Shown piece by piece: positions 1 through 9,330 of a DNA stretch of 10,450 nucleotides. The stretch's first letter is position 1. Each line of letters begins with the position of its first letter. Source of the DNA: Oligoflexus sp. (GTDB lineage: Bacteria > Bdellovibrionota_B > Oligoflexia > Oligoflexales > Oligoflexaceae); NCBI GenBank assembly GCA_041736305.1, contig JBGSTX010000205.1, positions 1-10,450 of the forward strand, in the 5' to 3' direction. Both the position numbers and the translations under genes were made by a program. The notes beneath the pieces are model-generated. The model searched no databases. It had not been told where the DNA came from and saw only the letters and a program-made list of their open reading frames with translations.

Positions 1-1005
1 TCGGGTTGTGGCAAGTCCACTCTCTTGCGGACGATCGCGGGGCTCGAAGAGGCGACTGAGGGCGAGATATTCATCGCTGGACGCAACGTCACTAATCTCC
101 AACCGCGCGAGCGAGATATCGCGATGGTTTTCCAAGACTACGCGCTCTATCCGCACATGACCGTTCGCGATAACCTAGCTTTCGGACTGCGCATGCGAGG
201 CGCTAACGCCAGCACGATTGACGAAGAAATCAATCGGGCTGCTAAAATCCTCAAGATCGACAGCTATCTGGATCGCAAGCCCGCCCAGCTCTCCGGCGGA
301 CAGCGGCAGCGCGTAGCGATCGGTCGCGCCATCGTTCGACGAGCCAGTCTTTTTCTGTTCGATGAGCCGCTATCCAACCTCGACGCCAAGCTGAGGGCGC
401 AGACTCGGATCGAACTTGCTGACTTGCATCAGAAGATCGGTGCAACTTCTGTTTACGTAACTCACGATCAGGTCGAAGCGATGACGCTCGCCGATCGCAT
501 CGTCGTCCTGCAAGGGGGCGTCATCCAGCAGATGGGCGCTCCGCTCGAACTCTATAATAAACCCGCTAATAAATTTGTGGCCTCGTTCATCGGCAGTCCG
601 ACTATCAACTTCTTCAACGGCACTCTGAGCCGCGATGCAGGCCGCACTCTTTTTCGCGTGGGTGATTTCACCTTTGATTTCTCCCAGGCGCCGGCACCCG
701 CGAAGCCAGGTCCCTACACGCTTGGTCTGAGGCCTGAAGCGATCAAAGTACTTGGTAAAAGCGGACGCGAGGCCAGCGGTCAGGTCGATATGCAAGTCGA
801 AGTCCTTCTGAAAGAACCTCATGGGCACGAAGTGCATATGGTCGGCCAGATCGCAGGTCAGCAGGTCTTGATCCGTAGCGCCAACCCGCAGAGACTCCTC
901 ATGATCAACGAAGCTAAGCGCGGTGACAAGCTACCTTGCACGATCGATCGCGAAGCGTTGCACTGGTTTGCCCCTGACGAGATTGGTCTGAGGATTACGG
1001 TCTAA
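1..1005 (+). CDS. malK: Carbohydrate ABC transporter ATP-binding subunit (MalK/MsmX/UgpC family), 5'-truncated by the window edge
   Basis: Frame 1 is open from base 1 and reads [10 protein letters not shown] (Walker A), so the true start is upstream of the window and the ORF-track start at 25 is not real. It also has the Q-loop [13 protein letters not shown], signature LSGGQRQR, Walker B/D-loop [12 protein letters not shown]-loop [15 protein letters not shown] and a C-terminal TOBE-like region (LGLRPE). The symbol is a family-level call. Confidence 0.95.
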
Positions 1006-1049
1006 AGCCCCATATTTTTTCTTTTTTTGGCAAGGAGCCGCGTCCAAAT

Positions 1050-3239
1050 ATGCTGCAATTGACTCTCGCTCGCGACCAACTGCTTACCGGCTATGGTACT
1101 CAAATGGACCCCAGCGTCGACCTCTCTTATTCGGGCCAACCCGGAGATGGATGTCGTCCTAGTATTTTCTTTGGGCCCTCGCGCGATGCGCTCAATCTCA
1201 TTACCCGCCGCCTCCATGCAACCCTCTTGCTCGTGCCTAAGCAACTCGAAGATCTTGAAACTCGGGTGTGGGTCGTTGCTCTACCTGCTGGCGATCCCGG
1301 CATTGCCAAACTTTGGCGAGAGCAGAGTCTAGGTCTCGGCCAGCAGATTCGGCCTCTCGTCCGCTATGCGAGTTTGGTTCAAAACGAAAGTGAACTGGAA
1401 CGCGACGCCGACGTATATCATCAGCAGTTTTCCCTCAAAGACCAGGATCTGCCTCCAGCGCTGAGAGATTTAGCCCTCCGCACTCTGGCGACGATCGATG
1501 GCGATAGTCTACGCGAAGAATGGCGCCTGACCGGACTGAGCTCCGACTGGAGCGCATCCTTAGTTTACTGGTTTCAAGCTGAAATCGGCGCCTCGCTCGA
1601 AATGCAAAGTACTCATTACGATGAAAAATCCGGGTCCATAGCTGCCTTCCGAGGTCCGGTTTGCTTTGGCATTCAGTCTACTGAATTGAACCAAAACCGC
1701 GCCCTTCCCGTTCGCTTTGCAGAGACCGGCACGGGGCAACATGGTCTCGCTGCACAACGTTTCGCCGATCTTCTGCGCAGCACCTGGGCCGAGGCGAATA
1801 CGATCGGCTTTCAAAAAGCCGGCGCGTCCACGCAAGAGCCTCGCTGGCTGCCGCTCGAGCCCCGTTCTATTACGAGTCACGGCGCAGCCGACGCTTTGAT
1901 CTGCTGGCAGCTGCCGGAAACTGGAGCTTTTGAGCTGCGTTTTCGCCTAGTCGAAGAGCTTCAGGACCTCCGCGACGCACTACCACCTTCGCCGTGGACC
2001 CGTATGCGCCAGGCGGATCAGGAATGGCTGAAGCGGCAGAAGCCTGCTCCCTCTCATGTGAAAGCAGCTGATCAGAGTCTCTATTACCGCACTCTGCTCG
2101 TCCTGCGCCAGATGCAGGACCCTGAAGGCGGGATTATTGCCGCCCCTGAATTTCATTACGCACTCACGCACTGCGGAGGCTACGGCTACTGCTGGGGTCG
2201 CGATGCGGGATTTATTTCCTATGCGATGGACGTCTGCGGCATGCACGAAGAGTCGGCGCGATTCTATCGTTACATGCAGCGTTGCCAGAGCCGCGATGGA
2301 AGTTTTCTCCATCGCCACGATATGGATGCGAATCTTGGTGCGAGCTGGGGGCTGCTCCAGCCCGACGAGACCGGCAGCGTACTCTTCGGTCTGTGGCAGC
2401 ACGTCAAGCTATCGGAAAACCGCGCTTTAGCTACAGAACTCCGGACGATGGTCGAGCGAGGTGCCGATTGGTTGGCCAAAGCGCGGCACAGCTCCGATCC
2501 CGAGCTACCTATAGAAGGCCACGATCTCTGGGAAGAACGTGAAGGCGTGCATCTCTATACTGTAGCTTCCATGGCTGCTGGTCTGCAGAGCGCGATTGAT
2601 CTCTATAAATATATGAACTGGGCCCCTCCCTACACATGGACCGAAGCCGCCGACCGCTTGCAGGCGCTCTGCGCTTCGCCGCGATTTATAGAGCGGAAAG
2701 GCGATTCCTATACCTTCAACAGGACTCTGCGCCGACGCGTCTCTGGATCTCAAGTCGCGCAACTCGAGCAGATGGGTCTGAACGTTCTCAGAGAGAAAAG
2801 CCCCGGAGGCCGGGTCCTCTACGAAATCGAATCCGATCAGGTTTTCGACATTTCGCAGCTGGCAATACAGTACCCCTATCATATCGTCGAAGATAAGACC
2901 TTACCGGGTGCAGTCGACGATTTGATCGAGAGTCTTTACGCAAGACTTTGGCGTCCGGGACAAGGCGGCATCGGCCGCTATGAATCCGACTACTATCGTG
3001 ATGGCAATGCCTGGGTTTTGACAACCCTGTGGCTGGCGCTTGGTGCGGCAGCTCAAGGCAAAACCGAAATAGCTAGAAGCTGCTGGCAGTGGGTCCTGAA
3101 TCATACTCCAGCCGAAGGTCTTCTACCGGAGCAAATCGATCCGGCAAGCGGGAAACCGAGCTGGGTGCTACCTCTGACCTGGTCCCATGCGATGTTTGCT
3201 CTAGCTATTCATCAGTTACCAAAAGAGGTTTTGACATGA
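1050..3239 (+). CDS. Glycoside hydrolase family 15 (glucoamylase-like), probably cytoplasmic, 729 aa
   Basis: GH15 motifs in the C-terminal ~390 aa: GGIIAAP, YGYCWGRDA, QPDETG, DLWEERE (general-acid region), GGIGRYESDYY, GNAWVLTTLW, LLPEQID (general-base Glu) and PLTWSHAMF. RBS AAGGAG at 1032-1037. No evident signal peptide. Confidence 0.92.
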   Translation: MLQLTLARDQLLTGYGTQMDPSVDLSYSGQPGDGCRPSIFFGPSRDALNLITRRLHATLLLVPKQLEDLETRVWVVALPAGDPGIAKLWREQSLGLGQQIRPLVRYASLVQNESELERDADVYHQQFSLKDQDLPPALRDLALRTLATIDGDSLREEWRLTGLSSDWSASLVYWFQAEIGASLEMQSTHYDEKSGSIAAFRGPVCFGIQSTELNQNRALPVRFAETGTGQHGLAAQRFADLLRSTWAEANTIGFQKAGASTQEPRWLPLEPRSITSHGAADALICWQLPETGAFELRFRLVEELQDLRDALPPSPWTRMRQADQEWLKRQKPAPSHVKAADQSLYYRTLLVLRQMQDPEGGIIAAPEFHYALTHCGGYGYCWGRDAGFISYAMDVCGMHEESARFYRYMQRCQSRDGSFLHRHDMDANLGASWGLLQPDETGSVLFGLWQHVKLSENRALATELRTMVERGADWLAKARHSSDPELPIEGHDLWEEREGVHLYTVASMAAGLQSAIDLYKYMNWAPPYTWTEAADRLQALCASPRFIERKGDSYTFNRTLRRRVSGSQVAQLEQMGLNVLREKSPGGRVLYEIESDQVFDISQLAIQYPYHIVEDKTLPGAVDDLIESLYARLWRPGQGGIGRYESDYYRDGNAWVLTTLWLALGAAAQGKTEIARSCWQWVLNHTPAEGLLPEQIDPASGKPSWVLPLTWSHAMFALAIHQLPKEVLT

Positions 3240-4471
3240 AAAAGACGATGCGTTTCGTCCTGGGAATGGCTCTGCTAGCAGCGACCGGTGCTCGCGCGCA
3301 GGACTCGGTGAAAATCAACTTCTGGGAACAAGATCCACCGGCCACCGCCGCTGAGATCGACAAGTGGATTACCGTATTCCAGCAGCAGAACCCTAAGATA
3401 AAGATAATTCGCCAGCACTATGAGAACGAGGAGCTGCGCACTAAATTCCTCCGCTCCTCGGTGACCGGCGACGGCGCGGACCTGGTTTATGGCCCGAACG
3501 ATATAGCCGGTGTCTTTGCCACCGCTGGTGTCATCCAGCCCGTCGACGACATCGTTAAAGATGGTGGTTTCACCCCAGCCGCGCTCGAAATGACGAAGCT
3601 CAATGGCAAAGTTTACGGTGTGCCTCTCAGCGAAGGCGCCCACCTTGTGCTCTACTACCTCAAAGACAAGGTGAAGGAGCTTCCGAAAGACACCGCGGGC
3701 TTGATCAAGCAAGCGAAGGAATTTACCAATCCCAAAGAAAACAAATACGGTCTGGCCTTCTTTCAGTCGGAACCATTCTGGTTCGTAGCTTTCCAAGGCG
3801 GCTTCGGCGGCTGGCCGCTGCAGACCAAGGGCGATCGAAGTAAGGTGACGATCGATACACCTGAAACACGGAAGGCTTTGCAGTTTCTGGTCGACCTCAA
3901 AGATAAAGAGAAGATTCTGCCGAAGGAGTGCAATTACGATTGCGCCAAGAACATGTTCCTCGGCGGACGGACTCTCTTTCATATCAGCGGTGACTGGGAG
4001 CTGAAGAGTTACAAAGACAAGTTTGGAGATAACCTTGGCATCGCTCCTCTTCCTATTATCACCGAGACGGGCAAAGCGATGACCCCGATGTTAGGTGGTC
4101 GCTTCCTCTATGTGAACGCCAAAACCAAGGGTCCTCAGCTTGAGGCCGTGAAGAAGTTCGCGCAGTTTGTGAATTCGAAACTGGTCCAGCTGCGGATTGC
4201 GACTCAACTCGACAGTATTCCGGTGTCTCAAGAAGTGCGGAACGATCCAGCTGTTACGTCCAACGCCCTGCTTATGAGCAGCATCGCGGCAGCCGCTCAA
4301 GCCAAGCCGATGCCTCCTCAGGTGGAGATGCGCGCCGCTTGGGATGGCATGCGCATCATGGTTCAGCGTGCAATGTCGGGTCAAGAGACCGTGGCCGTGG
4401 CCGTTAAAACAGGACAGAAAGCGGCTGACGAAGCTCTAAAATCTATCCAACGTCCAGCGACGGCTCGTTAA
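3236..4471 (+). CDS. malE: Periplasmic sugar-binding protein of the ABC transporter (maltose/maltodextrin-binding MalE-like), 411 aa
   Basis: ATG at 3236 overlaps the GH15 stop (ATGA) and has GAGG at 3225-3228. Sec/SPI signal peptide MKKTMRFVLGMALLAATGARA. Family motifs GDGADLVYGPND, NGKVYGVP and ISGDW, plus PMPPQVEMRAAW, which resembles the MalE C-terminal MPNIPQMSAFW. The substrate is inferred from family and from the GH15 neighbour. Confidence 0.9.
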   Translation: MKKTMRFVLGMALLAATGARAQDSVKINFWEQDPPATAAEIDKWITVFQQQNPKIKIIRQHYENEELRTKFLRSSVTGDGADLVYGPNDIAGVFATAGVIQPVDDIVKDGGFTPAALEMTKLNGKVYGVPLSEGAHLVLYYLKDKVKELPKDTAGLIKQAKEFTNPKENKYGLAFFQSEPFWFVAFQGGFGGWPLQTKGDRSKVTIDTPETRKALQFLVDLKDKEKILPKECNYDCAKNMFLGGRTLFHISGDWELKSYKDKFGDNLGIAPLPIITETGKAMTPMLGGRFLYVNAKTKGPQLEAVKKFAQFVNSKLVQLRIATQLDSIPVSQEVRNDPAVTSNALLMSSIAAAAQAKPMPPQVEMRAAWDGMRIMVQRAMSGQETVAVAVKTGQKAADEALKSIQRPATAR

Positions 4472-4499
4472 TTTTTAGGGCTTGGATGGGAGGGGAAGA

Positions 4500-5804
4500 A
4501 TGAACTTATCTTTGACACCAGCACTGTGGGAAATTCTCCGACTCGGCGGCGTCCTCTTGCTGCTCCTGAGCGTGAGCTATGCCTATCTGTGGCTCAACTA
4601 TAAGCTATGGGCCTATAAGCTCTATCTCCCCTGCAAGATCCTACTCGGCATCAGTTTAGGGCTCTCCGTCAAGGGTTTCAACGCCTCTTGGCTTACCGTG
4701 GCCTTTGCAACCCTGGTTCCTGTGGCGGTTGGGTTCTATTTTCGCTTCCGTCTCAAGGGGCGCTTTCATACGCCCGCTTACTTTCTAACACCGGCGGCTG
4801 TGGGTATACTCCTCCTCTTTCTCTATCCGCTGCTTTACGAGCTTTATCTCTCGTTCCACGACCTGAATCTCCGAACTTTTTCGCAGTGGATCAATGAAGG
4901 TCGGGCGCCCCTCGCCGGGTCTTTTGGTTTGGATAATTATTTTGAAGTCTTTCGCGAACGCGCCACCGGACAGGGTTTTTTGGTAGTATTTGGCCGAACC
5001 ATTCTCTGGACGGTGATAAACCTCGTTTTTCACGTGGGCATAGGATTGATCCTGGCCCTCCTTCTCAACACAGCGGGTTTGAAGGCCAAGAACATCTACC
5101 GTTCTCTCCTCACTCTCCCCTGGGTTATGCCGCAGGTCATCGCTGTTCTCGTCTGGCGCTCCGACTTCGATGAGAGCGTGGGCTTCATCAACAAATTCAT
5201 CATCGTGATGAATCGCCTCTTTTCCTTCGAGTGGGGCGGAACCGTCGTTGAACCTTTGACCTGGATCGGCTTTCAACCTCAGGCTTGGTTTCTCAATCCG
5301 GCTTCTCTCTTCGCTGCAGCCTGTATCGTCAATATCTGGCTAGGCGTACCTTTTATGATGATCAATGCTCTTGGAGCTCTCCAGTCCATACCGAAAAGCG
5401 TCTACGAAGCGGCCTCGATCGATGGGGCGCGAGCCTGGCAGCGCTTCTATCATGTTACCCTGCCCCTGCTCAAACCAGTGATGGTCCCAGCGACGATGCT
5501 CGGTGCCATCTGGACCTTCAATAACCTCAACGTCATAGTTCTCATGACAGATATGGGACGTTATGAGGGTGCCGACATCCTGGTCTCTGATCTCTATAAG
5601 CAGAGCTTCACCTACTACCGCTACGGTTTTGCGGCCGCCTACTCATTTGTGATCTTCGCGATACTCTGCGTGTTTACCTATGCGCAATCGCGATTGGGCC
5701 AAGAATCGAAGCCTAGCAAAAAAGAACAAGATGCGGCTTTCAAAGGCTTGAAAAAATCCGGCCTGCCGCCTTCCAAAGAACTCGGCTCCATGGGGGTACA
5801 GTGA
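4500..5804 (+). CDS. malF: Sugar ABC transporter permease (MalF-like), 434 aa
   Basis: Multiple hydrophobic segments, GLDNY motif, LPWVMP, and EAA loop SIPKSVYEAASIDGARAWQRFYHVTLPLLKP; also FNNLNVI and YGFAAA. RBS GGAGG at 4489-4493 favours ATG 4500 over TTG 4482. Confidence 0.92.
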   Translation: MNLSLTPALWEILRLGGVLLLLLSVSYAYLWLNYKLWAYKLYLPCKILLGISLGLSVKGFNASWLTVAFATLVPVAVGFYFRFRLKGRFHTPAYFLTPAAVGILLLFLYPLLYELYLSFHDLNLRTFSQWINEGRAPLAGSFGLDNYFEVFRERATGQGFLVVFGRTILWTVINLVFHVGIGLILALLLNTAGLKAKNIYRSLLTLPWVMPQVIAVLVWRSDFDESVGFINKFIIVMNRLFSFEWGGTVVEPLTWIGFQPQAWFLNPASLFAAACIVNIWLGVPFMMINALGALQSIPKSVYEAASIDGARAWQRFYHVTLPLLKPVMVPATMLGAIWTFNNLNVIVLMTDMGRYEGADILVSDLYKQSFTYYRYGFAAAYSFVIFAILCVFTYAQSRLGQESKPSKKEQDAAFKGLKKSGLPPSKELGSMGVQ

Positions 5805-6832
5805 TGGCTCTGTCGAATAAGGCCTCTTTGCCTCGACTCCTTTTCGTTCATCTTATCCTCTGGGCGGCCTGCCTCGTCGCCACTTTTCCTGTGCTCCGCG
5901 TCGTTGCTATATCGTTTCGAAACACGGACACCGTGAGCAGCTCGGAGCAGCTGAACTTTCCTCCTCGTGGTCAGGCTACCGTCGCTGACTACCTGAAGTT
6001 CTTCGGCAACGCTCTAGTTCCCACCGAAATAGTCGCTGCATTTACCGAGCAGGATTCACCTGAGAAAGCTGCCAGCGAGACCGCAGCTCCGATAGCTAAC
6101 GCTGACGATCCCTTTGCCAGTCTCGATGCCGCCAGCTCACAGAAGTCGACGCGAACCTGGTACTCCAACTACAGCGACCTCTTCACAAAATATCTCTTCG
6201 TGCAATGGATCTATAACTCCCTAGTTATTTCCCTCACAGCCTCTTTGATCGGCGTTTTTCTGGCAGCGTCTGCGGCCTATGCGTTTGCTAGATTTGAGTT
6301 TCCTGGTAAAAAGTTCGCTTCGGCGCTCCTTTTCATGACGCAAATGATACCCGCACCGCTCATGATTATTCCCGTTTACCTCGTCATAAAAAGCCTCGGC
6401 CTCGGCAATACCTACGCCGGTCTCATCATCGCGCTCTCGGTTACGATCCTGCCCTTTTCGATCATGATCCTGAAGGGCTACTTCGAGACTGTACCCAAGA
6501 GTCTTGAAGAAGCGGCGCGAGTCGATGGCTGTACGGCAACTTCGGCGTTTTTCAGAATCCTCTTGCCTCTGTCCACTCCGGCTCTGGCGATCGCTTTTCT
6601 CTTTGCTTTCACGAATGCCTGGAGTGAATTCCTGCTCGCCTCGACTCTCATCGATTCGATCGAACTCAGACCTTGGACGCTCGGTCTCATGGAATTTAGC
6701 GGCAGCTACGACGCGCGCTGGGGCATATTTGCAGCAGGCTCGGTTGTCATTGCCCTACCCAGTATGGCTCTATTTCTCTATTCCTCCAAATATGTCATCT
6801 CCGGTCTAACGGTTGGCAGTGTGAAAGGTTAG
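5804..6832 (+). CDS. malG: Sugar ABC transporter permease (MalG-like), 342 aa
   Basis: The start overlaps the previous stop (GTGATG: GTG 5801 or ATG 5804). Motifs WIYNSL, AAYAFARFEFPGK, EAA loop VPKSLEEAARVDG, AWSEFLLA and the typical C-terminus SGLTVGSVKG. Confidence 0.93.
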   Translation: MALSNKASLPRLLFVHLILWAACLVATFPVLRVVAISFRNTDTVSSSEQLNFPPRGQATVADYLKFFGNALVPTEIVAAFTEQDSPEKAASETAAPIANADDPFASLDAASSQKSTRTWYSNYSDLFTKYLFVQWIYNSLVISLTASLIGVFLAASAAYAFARFEFPGKKFASALLFMTQMIPAPLMIIPVYLVIKSLGLGNTYAGLIIALSVTILPFSIMILKGYFETVPKSLEEAARVDGCTATSAFFRILLPLSTPALAIAFLFAFTNAWSEFLLASTLIDSIELRPWTLGLMEFSGSYDARWGIFAAGSVVIALPSMALFLYSSKYVISGLTVGSVKG

Positions 6833-6898: not shown

Positions 6899-6924
6899 GA
6901 GCAAAAGTCAACGAGGAGAGTGTG

Positions 6925-7686
6925 ATGGCATCCAAAGCGCTTTTGGCGGAGCTGCAAGCTGCTATAGCGAGCTATTTGGAAAATCACAAAAACTTGAGTA
7001 TACAGTCGATTTCTAACAAGACCGGCGTCAGCTACTCAACGATTCGTCGTATCCTGCAGAACGAAGCGAACGACGTTCGAGACGAGACTATACTCTCCCT
7101 CATCCTTGTCGTGATGCCTCAGGCTCAACGTCTGCAGTTTCTGCAGACCTACTACCCTTCGCTGGGAGCTCTGCTCCGCGAGAGTCAGGCTATCGACAAT
7201 CCGGCGATGGATCACTTCAAACTTCGACTCTATCGCTTCAAAGACCCGCATAACTACATTTTGAAAATGGCTCTGACAGAGCAGGGTACGACCCGTAAAG
7301 ATATCTTTCGCCTTTTGGGCGAACGGGGACTATGCGCTCTCGATGAGATGCTCGACGATAAATTCTTGCAAGAAGACCGCGTGAATCGGATCAGCCACCC
7401 CGACCGCGGCTCTTGTATGATGAACGCCGACGACATACTGCATCAGGTAAAAAAAGACGCCGATTACTTCGATAAATCGATGGTGGGATCCCAATTTGCG
7501 CGCTTGGCCCATCTCTCGGCGTCTCTCAGCCTGTCGGCTTACAAGGAGCTGGTCGACCTCGTTAGCGAATTCATCAAAAAGAGTGATAGGCTGAAAGAAG
7601 CTCCTCAGAACCAGGGCGTCGTCCCCGTTTTTATCGATGTCATGGTCAATACTTACGATAGGGCTTCCATTACAGGAGTGAGTTGA
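6925..7686 (+). CDS. Putative DNA-binding protein with N-terminal XRE-like HTH and TIGR02147/DUF4423-like architecture, 253 aa
   Basis: RBS GAGGAG 6 nt before ATG 6925. The N-terminal LSIQSISNKTGVSYSTIRRILQNE fits an HTH pattern. The central TTRKDIFRLLGERGLCALDEMLDDKFL is winged-helix-like. The C-terminal LSASLSLSAYKELVDLVSEFIKK...VPVFIDV resembles DUF4423-type tails. The family assignment is by eye. Confidence 0.7.
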   Translation: MASKALLAELQAAIASYLENHKNLSIQSISNKTGVSYSTIRRILQNEANDVRDETILSLILVVMPQAQRLQFLQTYYPSLGALLRESQAIDNPAMDHFKLRLYRFKDPHNYILKMALTEQGTTRKDIFRLLGERGLCALDEMLDDKFLQEDRVNRISHPDRGSCMMNADDILHQVKKDADYFDKSMVGSQFARLAHLSASLSLSAYKELVDLVSEFIKKSDRLKEAPQNQGVVPVFIDVMVNTYDRASITGVS

Positions 7687-8057
7687 TGCGCGCAGCTACT
7701 TTAACTTTGGTGGCGACTCTGTGGTTCTCCACAGCTATTGCCTCTCCCCGCAATGGTGAGACAGGAATATTGATCGTCGTAAAGCGCTTTGAAACCAGAA
7801 TCGATGGTCTAAACCACCAAACCTTCGTCATCTGCACCGACCAATGGCAAGAGATCAATCATGCTCTCGACCAAGGTCAGCCTACCAGGATCTTCCTCAA
7901 CAATATTGGCTACTATGATGTTGTCGTGAACGAGAAGGGTAAGCTCACGCTCCTACCGCTCGTCGAGAGCTCGGAAATCGAATCGAGCCATGAAAGCTTT
8001 TCTCTTGTTCCTCGCGACTGCCCCTTCGCTTTGTCGAAATCCGACTCTGACTGCTGA
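7686..8057 (+). CDS. Hypothetical secreted protein, 123 aa
   Basis: ATG overlaps the upstream stop (TGATG), with RBS AGGAG at 7674-7678. The N-terminus MRAATLTLVATLWFSTAIA-S looks like an SPI signal peptide. Three Cys. No recognised domain. Confidence 0.7.
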   Translation: MRAATLTLVATLWFSTAIASPRNGETGILIVVKRFETRIDGLNHQTFVICTDQWQEINHALDQGQPTRIFLNNIGYYDVVVNEKGKLTLLPLVESSEIESSHESFSLVPRDCPFALSKSDSDC

Positions 8058-8074
8058 TCGCCTCAAAATCCCTA

Positions 8075-8103
8075 ATAAAAAGGGCCTGCAGAAAGCAGGC
8101 CCC
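8075..8103 (-). terminator. Rho-independent terminator for minus-strand transcripts
   Basis: Perfect 8-bp GC-rich stem gggcctgc (8082-8089) / gcaggccc (8095-8102) with a 5-nt loop. On the minus strand it is followed by TTTTTATT. There is no U-tract on the plus strand. Confidence 0.85.
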
Positions 8104-8259
8104 TGAAACCAAGAGATCAAACCTCAACCTTTGGACGATAGGAAAAACTTCCCGCCACCCGCACACAATTTTCCACGATTCACCAGGAAAACATCTTCAG
8201 CAGTCAACTGAAGTCTCAGGACCCATCTCTGCAACAGCACGATTTTCACACGATCTTTT
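8075..8259 (-). ncRNA. Candidate structured small RNA (~185 nt), family not recognised
   Basis: Bounded by its own promoter (8294-8266) and terminator (8103-8075). No credible ORF. Three local hairpins plus a closing long-range helix can be seen by eye. The ends are estimates. Confidence 0.55.
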
Positions 8260-8265
8260 TTTTAC

Positions 8266-8294
8266 ATTAAAAATCAGAGCGCCTTACTTGTCAA
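8266..8294 (-). promoter_or_regulatory. Sigma70-type promoter TTGACA-N17-TTTAAT with AT-rich upstream element
   Basis: Minus strand: perfect -35 TTGACA (8294-8289), 17-nt spacer, -10 TTTAAT (8271-8266; alternatively TAATGT with a 19-nt spacer). AT-rich AAAATATTGCTTTTTAT lies immediately upstream. Confidence 0.65.
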
Positions 8295-8313
8295 ATAAAA
8301 AGCAATATTTTCG

Positions 8314-9330
8314 CTAAGTGGGATCTGTTTCTTCCGTTCCTGGCTCACTGCGGAGACGTCGTATGACGTTGATCGCGATTAAAGTCCGTACCAAATTGGT
8401 CGGATGAAAACTGAGACTGACCTTGTCGCCCTGTTTTTTTAGCTCTATGAGATTGATCTTTTCAGCTAGGTCGATCGCTCCCTGATCAAGCGGCACCTTC
8501 ATCAGATTCTCAAATTGCTCCGCAAGAATCGTGAGATCGGTCGAGTAAGCCTTATTAGGATCTGCACCGGTCTTAGCCACGTATTCCCGCAAAGCAAAGA
8601 GTACCTTACGCTGCTTGAAGGGGATCGCTGTCTGCACCATCTTCTTAAACTTGCCGCTCCGCGAAGATCGCACAAAATCCGCGTACCACTTCAATCGCAG
8701 GGCAGCGGCCAGCGAGATCACTTCTTTATTGTGATCAGGCTCCAACTCGACCTTCATGAGACCGGTATTCTTGAAAATTTCCACCACATGGCTTAGGACG
8801 CTCGCTTCATAAGAAAGGCAGTTGCCGATGGTTAGCATGATGTCGCCCAGGAAGAGGACCTCGCGTCCATCCGCTAGGCGTTTCGCGCGAGAAGGACCCA
8901 ATTCGGCGAGGCTGTCAGCGATTTGCGTGGAAATGGTCAGCTGATCGAGGCCGCGATGCAGGAGATCGTTCTTTTCCTGCAGCGCTCGTGCGAACTGGTC
9001 GTTGATCTGTTCGAGTCGGGTGGTGAATTCCTTGAGAACCACCTGTACCCACCGTGGCAGGTTCTGCAAGGGGTCCTGGCCCACCGTCCGTGAGATGAGC
9101 TGCCCCTCCACATGGGTCCGTGCGCGGGCTGAGGCGAGCCTCTGACCAGCGTTGAAGAAGGTCAGCATCCCGATGACTTCGCCGCTGCCTTGCACCGTGA
9201 GGAGGACCTCACCGAGAGGAGTGTCCTTGAAAACCTCGACGCTCCCCTCTTTGATCATGAGCATTGAGTCGCCAAGATCGCCCTGCTTGAAGATAAGTTC
9301 GCCAGGTTCAAATGTCTTGATTATTTCCAT
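8314..9330 (-). CDS. Cyclic nucleotide-binding domain protein (Crp/Fnr-like N-terminus) with an extended C-terminal region, 338 aa
   Basis: N-terminal cNMP beta-roll pattern FEPGELIFKQGDLGDSMLMIKEGSVEV...GEVIG...RLASARA, followed by a C-helix (VVLKEFTTRLEQINDQ). RBS AAGGA upstream of ATG 9330. Confidence 0.85.
   Translation of the reverse strand: MEIIKTFEPGELIFKQGDLGDSMLMIKEGSVEVFKDTPLGEVLLTVQGSGEVIGMLTFFNAGQRLASARARTHVEGQLISRTVGQDPLQNLPRWVQVVLKEFTTRLEQINDQFARALQEKNDLLHRGLDQLTISTQIADSLAELGPSRAKRLADGREVLFLGDIMLTIGNCLSYEASVLSHVVEIFKNTGLMKVELEPDHNKEVISLAAALRLKWYADFVRSSRSGKFKKMVQTAIPFKQRKVLFALREYVAKTGADPNKAYSTDLTILAEQFENLMKVPLDQGAIDLAEKINLIELKKQGDKVSLSFHPTNLVRTLIAINVIRRLRSEPGTEETDPT

Follow-up and report, generated by a model that had tools for sequence, protein, structure and literature searches.

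A predicted genus-specific noncoding RNA gene with its own promoter behind a cyclic nucleotide-binding regulator gene in Oligoflexus

The locus

In a 10,450-nt window of an Oligoflexus genome (contig C267 of a 5.02-Mb assembly in 392 contigs), a gene for a protein with a cyclic nucleotide-binding (cNMP) domain is followed on the same, minus strand by a stretch at 8259-8075 that we interpret as a genus-specific noncoding RNA gene with its own promoter, the product of which would act through an invariant stretch near its 3′ end. We consider this reading, taken as a whole, probable. That the locus is a real noncoding RNA gene transcribed from its own promoter we believe with good confidence, and that the RNA works by pairing through the invariant stretch we regard as evenly poised. 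Coordinates are those of the window, the whole stretch of DNA analyzed, and the RNA locus is read on the minus strand. The stop codon, the upstream tract and the promoter elements listed below are read directly from the sequence.

8314-9330, minus strand: gene for a Bd2879-like cyclic nucleotide-binding putative transcription factor of 338 aa (from the open reading frame, Pfam and a structure match)
8316-8314, minus strand: stop codon TAG of the cNMP-domain open reading frame
8295-8313, minus strand: AT-rich tract CGAAAATATTGCTTTTTAT, 14 of 19 bases A or T, separating the stop codon from the −35 box
8289-8294, minus strand: −35 box TTGACA
8288-8272, minus strand: promoter spacer, 17 nt
8266-8271, minus strand: −10 box TTTAAT, beyond the 17-nt spacer
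8255-8262, minus strand: predicted transcription start, at about 8259, 7 nt past the −10 box, placed by promoter geometry
8128-8259, minus strand: 5′ domain of the RNA, variable and impossible to align across clades, with local hairpins, e.g., at 8213-8195
8106-8127, minus strand: invariant 22-nt core UUGAGGUUUGAUCUCUUGGUUU, the proposed working (pairing or binding) region
8082-8102, minus strand: terminator hairpin GGGCCUGC-UUUCU-GCAGGCCC, with arms at 8102-8095 and 8089-8082 and the loop at 8094-8090
8075-8081, minus strand: T run and predicted 3′ end (UUUUUAU), with TTTTT at 8081-8077

A reading of the window made earlier from the sequence alone (the sequence-only reading) had placed here a near-consensus σ70 promoter about 20 nt past the stop codon. 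The promoter is present and conserved, and its −35 box matches the consensus at six of six positions; “near-consensus” is slightly generous for the −10 box, which matches at five of six and lacks the A at position 2, usually the most conserved base of this hexamer. Because a consensus scan demands that A, the promoter is absent from the list that the scan produced. The AT-rich upstream tract claimed along with the promoter is there as well, and possibly acts as a putative UP-like element; at 19 nt, it is too short for a terminator. Counting both strands of the whole assembly, TTGAC[AT]-N17-TT[TA]AAT, the narrower form of the promoter pattern, occurs only four times.

The other end of the unit is a strong intrinsic terminator, as had been supposed: the consensus scan finds 10 pairs, seven of them G-C, at 8104-8080, followed by the T run, and two to three unpaired nucleotides separate the core from the hairpin. 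The 185-nt RNA as a whole has a minimum free energy of −58 kcal/mol (z = −1.91; 9 of 200 shuffles are equally stable), a weak signal that is mostly owed to the terminator. Six open reading frames (ORFs) of at least 20 aa overlap 8060-8300, the longest within the RNA being one of 41 aa (8249-8124) that has no counterpart in the homologs described below and is therefore not a gene. ORFs in two frames, closed by UGAs of the core, are missing from 10 of 22 homologs and encode peptides unlike one another in the rest, in line with the earlier judgment that these ~185 nt contain no credible ORF. ARAGORN reports neither a tRNA nor a transfer-messenger RNA.

The next gene, at 7683-8057 on the plus strand, is convergent, and the stretch is therefore not a leader; a riboswitch or 5′ leader was rejected on the grounds that no same-strand gene lies downstream and that Rfam finds no riboswitch. 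This neighbor, an ORF of 124 aa, matches no Pfam or NCBIfam family and is conserved at 39-43% identity beside a helix-turn-helix (HTH; DeoR-like) regulator, the preceding plus-strand ORF (6922-7686), with which it overlaps by 4 nt. Identity of the regulator within the window’s clade and clade B is 74-85%. Upstream of the regulator, a sugar-uptake cluster (1-6832, plus strand) encodes an ABC ATPase (MalK/TOBE), a GH15 glycoside hydrolase, a solute-binding protein, and two permeases.

Conservation of the core, terminator and promoter

Twenty-two distinct copies of the locus are available, 14 from genomes of the genus and eight from metagenome contigs. All 22 positions of the core are invariant in 22 of 22 copies, when the neighboring cNMP protein is merely 45-64% identical over the same loci; as DNA, the core is TTGAGGTTTGATCTCTTGGTTT (window 8127-8106), identical in all 14 genomes and directly before the terminator. 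Terminator hairpins are likewise kept in every copy (8-11 bp, −16.0 to −19.5 kcal/mol), in 21 distinct sequences, and a T run of at least four follows in 21 of the 22, the exception (L010) being cut by the contig end.

Upstream of the core, 20 of the 21 copies that can be evaluated (L003 is cut by the contig end) carry TTGAC[AT]-N17-[TA]T[TA]AAT, with a spacing of exactly 17 nt in all 20; this count is descriptive, the regular expression having been drawn up after the sequences had been viewed. Over 12 genome copies identity is 92% in the hexamers, compared with 50% in the spacer and 54% in the flanks. The promoter pattern is, we judge, more than chance. The transcribed 5′ part cannot be aligned between clades, and the core starts 67-70 nt past the −10 box in one clade, 91-98 nt past it in a second and 132-187 nt past it in that of the window; the predicted RNAs are ~185 nt long in the window and 115-235 nt among relatives. 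The sequence-only reading of a complete noncoding unit with its own promoter in the 3′ untranslated region (UTR) of the cNMP gene is thus supported by a promoter in 20 of 21 copies and by a core and terminator in all 22.

The copy without a promoter, in G011 (L009, contig G011:C998), has undergone a deletion of ~90 nt, by comparison with five close relatives (L010, L011, L013, L088, and L098). The upstream element is lost along with the promoter and ~35 nt at the start of the RNA, but the core and terminator are kept and lie right behind the cNMP stop codon. The deletion could be an assembly artifact in a metagenome-assembled genome (MAG) with 8% contamination. Taken as it stands, this copy speaks for the 3′ module as the decisive part, one that can also be delivered as a 3′ UTR.

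A single-copy, genus-restricted element

A BLAST search with 8060-8330, of the kind that had been proposed as a check, matches each of the other 13 genus genomes once and has no match in 27 genomes from elsewhere in the family and order; the alignments cover only the last ~80 nt (query positions ~181-264). A covariance model of the 3′ module finds a single match of 63.6-85.1 bits in each of the 14 genus genomes. The remaining matches in the 22 genomes of the family search do not exceed 24.2 bits, and paralogs within the genus were rejected, the secondary matches there being coding or partial. Against 117 Bdellovibrionota genomes from outside the genus, the model’s best score is 26.2 bits and no credible copy is found; on reading, the seven best outside matches are coding sequence or noise.

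Searches with a 19-mer of the core agree with this picture. Among 185,579 species, with one genome each, it occurs in 11 records, namely, Oligoflexus sp., Oligoflexus tunisiensis Shr3, Oligoflexaceae, Bdellovibrionota, and one Proteobacteria MAG. It also occurs in 13 metagenome contigs, nine of which carry true homologs (two are duplicates, leaving eight distinct), the remaining four being chance matches inside unrelated coding sequence. In G015, G018 and G021, from two other genera, orthologs of the cNMP gene (39-42% identity) have different genes behind them and lack a promoter-terminator unit there. Among the genomes searched, the RNA is single copy and confined to Oligoflexus.

A proposed mode of action

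We posit that transcription begins at the RNA’s own σ70-type promoter, 19 nt past the cNMP stop codon, and ends at the terminator that would also be used by the upstream cNMP mRNA, whose 3′ UTR the RNA would overlap. The functional module would be the 3′ end, UUGAGGUUUGAUCUCUUGGUUU before the terminator hairpin, leaving the 5′ domain free to evolve. The invariant stretch would serve as a seed for pairing in trans with several mRNAs: GAUCUCUUGG could pair with Shine-Dalgarno (SD) regions of the type CCAGGAGAUC, and pairing would block translation initiation or alter mRNA stability independently of Hfq. A free 5′ domain, an invariant stretch beside the terminator, a promoter of its own and a single copy form the usual pattern of a multitarget, trans-acting small RNA (sRNA).

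The GAUCUCUUGG part of the core is complementary, G-U pairs included, to the SD-containing CCAGGAGAUC, and sites that pair with it occur at three ribosome-binding sites (RBSs) in two genomes. A genus-wide pattern, CARGAGRTCARACC, has 21 matches in the 14 genomes, 14 of which are the sRNA gene itself, whereas a backwards control has none. This is a mild excess over the control, and no conserved target emerged from the matches.

Several observations weigh against the proposal. Transcription, the 5′ end, action in trans, and the anti-SD-like mode of pairing are inferred from sequence. A search of sequencing runs for window 7700-8700 turned up no RNA run; one run of DNA or unknown type contains 0.34 of the sampled words. 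The −10 box, TTTAAT, lacks its A at position 2, and the cNMP genes of the same genomes show more canonical-looking boxes, e.g., TTGACG-N17-TATAAT or TAAGAT. With its promoter lost, the G011 copy could yield the RNA only as a 3′ UTR. The clades do not all have a secondary structure in common, and predicted folds of two clades engage the core itself. The clade C RNA has a long stem at its 5′ end, in which some changes are compensatory; its next hairpin forms between CCUCA and the UGAGG of the core (UUGAGG is paired), after which UUUGAUCUCUUGGUUUU is free and the terminator follows; L002 and L003 have the same CCUCAA/UUGAGG pairing. The core of the clade B RNAs is paired to their 5′ end, with many G-U pairs. 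Hfq, the usual partner of base-pairing sRNAs, was not found either: a search with PF17209 detects it in none of four Oligoflexus genomes (G000, G002, G003, and G006), one of them a single contig at 94% completeness, and the same search, run as a control, finds it in 5 of 14 named genomes.

The search for targets adds to these points. At k = 11, perfect complementary k-mers number 63 (12 of them self) and are not enriched, five shuffles giving 13-56 and the reversed sequence 17; the matches are mostly coding AAGAGATCAAA. Runs of at least 10 pairs with G-U allowed are not enriched either (8689 versus 3663-10778 for six shuffles). The seven CARGAGRTCARACC matches outside the sRNA gene comprise three nonorthologous RBSs (those of flagellin and C142 in G000 and of a lipocalin-like gene in G013), three antisense matches to one conserved coding sequence, and one elsewhere. 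In the window’s own genome, 138 sites near crude start codons were ranked. Three candidates were followed into orthologs across the genus, and each of the three was rejected. The flagellin RBS of G000:C5, CAGGAGGTCAGACC, pairs over 14 nt in G000, where the predicted energy is −23.1 kcal/mol versus −11.8 to −16.4 kcal/mol in 13 orthologs, which keep only ACAGGAG. The start region of rpoN gives −21.3 kcal/mol versus −7.6 to −15.2 kcal/mol, the match being lost in 12 orthologs, and the cNMP gene’s own 5′ UTR gives −19.5 kcal/mol versus −10.2 to −15.2 kcal/mol and is not conserved in eight orthologs. Conserved complementarity to orthologous mRNA sites is thus absent for the three candidates tested across the genus, and the translation initiation regions of the other genes in the window are unremarkable against 1500 random windows.

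Pairing with or mimicry of rRNA was rejected, too. In the rrn operon of O. tunisiensis the best energy is −21.0 kcal/mol versus shuffle minima of −18.2 to −25.0 kcal/mol, and the resemblance of the core to the 5′ end of 16S rRNA (GAGUUUGAUCCUGG) is at chance level.

As for the fold of the RNA at large, the long-range fold predicted for the window RNA accounts for only 0.08% of the ensemble, and the RNAalifold consensus of the 3′ module, the sole part common to all copies, is weak (−3.58 kcal/mol). Terminators were compared as single-sequence folds because MAFFT sets clade C one column out of register. The sequence-only reading had staked itself beforehand on conservation in relatives, and by that standard it is supported: promoter, core and terminator are kept. 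A structure conserved over the whole RNA was not found among the copies, conservation being limited to the 3′ module.

The flagellin genes deserve a note of their own. Each Oligoflexus genome has ~4-9 flagellin-like matches. The 5′ UTRs of the orthologs of the flagellin gene G000:C5:3235-4158 (L103-L116) have in common a conserved hairpin and, at the RBS, ATGACAGGAG, together with an upstream CTAAA...CGAAA pair that resembles a σ28-type promoter. A csrA gene lies ~10 kb from another flagellin paralog in G002, G003, and G006. These features suggest a possible CsrA-type control of flagellin.

The neighboring regulator gene

The protein encoded upstream has a Pfam cNMP_binding domain at its N terminus (residues 5-75, E = 5.5e-16) and no other Pfam domain, and searches of NCBIfam and of PDB sequences add no match in the 220 aa at the C terminus. 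The AlphaFold model, for which 26 homologs were used (mean pLDDT of 87.3), has its best PDB fold match over the full length in 9sfa, which is Bd2879 from Bdellovibrio bacteriovorus (337 columns, E = 1.3e-16), the structural alignment having 16-17% identity. Bd2879 is described as a putative transcription factor with an N-terminal nucleotide-binding domain, two winged HTH domains, and a C-terminal zinc-finger tail (PMC12750041). The window protein resembles it in length class and fold, with an N-terminal cNMP domain and two HTH domains, but stops at 338 aa without the zinc-finger tail. Given the full-length match to a putative transcription factor, the RNA gene would therefore lie behind a probable cyclic nucleotide-dependent regulator. 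About 40 homologs of the cNMP protein are available, nearly all from Oligoflexus-like sources and annotated only as Crp/Fnr-like.

In the great majority of copies, the cNMP gene lies upstream of the RNA on the same strand and, where the two are adjacent, its stop codon is 19 nt (in the window) to ~30 nt from the −35 box. The consensus scan finds no terminator-like site between 8314 and 8294, and since 19 nt leaves no room for a terminator, the cNMP mRNA should share that of the sRNA; the RNA would accordingly overlap the 3′ UTR of the cNMP mRNA. Two loci depart from this arrangement. In G012, another gene, starting ATGAAAAAACAACTGGC, stands between the cNMP gene and an intact promoter-RNA unit that keeps the upstream element; the end of contig C86 and the start of C177 share that element, and the contigs therefore join. 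In metagenome contig L092, which extends 414 nt upstream of the core, no cNMP gene was found over that length, and the promoter and upstream element are kept. Both arrangements argue for an independent unit.

Direct repeats with a 10-bp period adjoin the −35 box in some clades. They read AGATT-N5-AGATT in clade C (L010, L011, L012, L013, L014, L088, L092, and L098) and AATCT-N5-AATCT or AATCC-N5-AATCT in L004 and L005 of clade B, AATCT being the reverse complement of AGATT; the window’s own copy has no such repeat. The exact 17-nt element of clade C, AGATTCNCTRAGATTTT, is found in five genomes at the sRNA promoter alone, and matches with two mismatches number 4-16 per genome versus 3-12 for a control. 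The repeats may be the binding site of the regulator, a lead only. One could go further and imagine the RNA and its neighbor as one signaling module, in which the Bd2879-like factor would bind the repeats and switch the noncanonical promoter, making the sRNA a posttranscriptional output of cAMP or cGMP in a lineage without Hfq, with the core acting on many RBSs or on a conserved protein; we find this extension doubtful.

Alternative explanations

The same elements could be a cis-acting part of the cNMP mRNA, with the core and hairpin governing its termination, processing or stability and the promoter-like boxes serving, for example, as an operator; in a variant, the active RNA would have no start of its own and would be cut from the mRNA 3′ UTR, as are CpxQ/SroC-type (type II) sRNAs. 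Such an element would necessarily be part of the mRNA, because the gap from the stop codon to the −35 box is too short for a terminator; at most loci it has the cNMP gene ahead of it in the same orientation, its −10 box is noncanonical, and the promoterless copy of G011, whose core and terminator come immediately after the stop codon, could arise only by CpxQ/SroC-like processing. But 20 of 21 evaluable copies, unlike CpxQ/SroC-type RNAs, have a promoter of their own, and hexamers set 17 nt apart and conserved at 92% around a spacer at 50% are a promoter signature. The G012 unit, moreover, keeps its promoter even with a gene intervening, no cNMP gene was found in the 414 nt of L092, and a 5′ domain of 70-190 nt, needless for a pure terminator, is kept in every clade. 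We therefore rate the cis explanation as unlikely.

A sponge or decoy RNA, the core of which would bind CsrA or some other conserved RNA-binding protein, would account for an invariant stretch of 22 nt, longer than most seeds, and for the lack of an mRNA target; CsrA is encoded in all four genomes searched (G000, G002, G003, and G006), the same ones in which Hfq is not found. CsrB/RsmZ-type RNAs, however, carry many GGA motifs, mostly in hairpin loops, whereas the predicted RNAs have 0-5 (20 RNAs, two with none) and the core has none, which makes a CsrB-like sponge unlikely; csrA itself lies elsewhere in the genome, with no tie to the locus. A protein-binding role of any kind seems to us quite improbable. 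Least credible, and very improbable in our estimation, is that the conserved stretch acts as DNA (a recombination or attachment site or an operator) or belongs to a small-protein gene. One copy per genome and strict invariance would suit a DNA element, but the core has no dyad symmetry, its orientation between promoter and terminator is constant, and the flanking genes are syntenic, with no signs of insertion at the site. The 41-aa ORF at 8249-8124 would be the natural candidate for a small protein, but ORFs are missing from 10 of the 22 copies and unalike elsewhere. A noncoding RNA gene with its own promoter remains our preferred reading.

Relation to known RNAs and implications

As had been supposed, the RNA matches no known family: Rfam 15 has no family at its gathering score within the window. 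The best subthreshold match, obtained with permissive filters, is suhB/mmgR (RF00519), an alphaproteobacterial RNA, at 8066-8149, and the two are alike in having a hairpin, a conserved single-stranded pyrimidine-rich stretch and a terminator. The match, however, scores 22.4 bits versus a cutoff of 41 (E = 0.05 in a 1.1-kb search), is mostly terminator, and sets cCUCCCU(A) of the model opposite GAUCUCUU in the window; membership in RF00519 was rejected because the score is below the gathering score and the C-rich stretch before the terminator is absent.

The closest parallels in organization are DapZ and MicL of enterobacteria, sRNAs that start at a promoter of their own within or behind the gene upstream, whose terminator they share, and that act with Hfq. 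The Oligoflexus unit likewise has a promoter ~20 nt past the upstream stop codon on the same strand with no intervening terminator, and a conserved, presumably functional part on the 3′ side by the terminator. It differs in having no sequence relation to either RNA, in belonging to a lineage of the Bdellovibrionota in which an Hfq gene was not found, and in being a predicted RNA.

A full-text search of the literature on Oligoflexus sRNA finds nothing on regulatory RNAs of the Oligoflexia and, within that scope and that of Rfam 15, the locus is the first well-supported sRNA candidate for the class. Lineage-specific sRNAs are common, and the finding is of an ordinary kind of bacterial regulatory RNA for which known principles hold. 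The cultivable type strain O. tunisiensis Shr3 (G006) carries the locus, with a predicted RNA of ~118 nt at G006:C1 ~2715969-2716086 (plus strand), making direct testing possible. What sets the candidate apart is that an apparently Hfq-independent sRNA would be tied to a cyclic nucleotide-sensing regulator, one whose Bdellovibrio relative, Bd2879, has been solved structurally.

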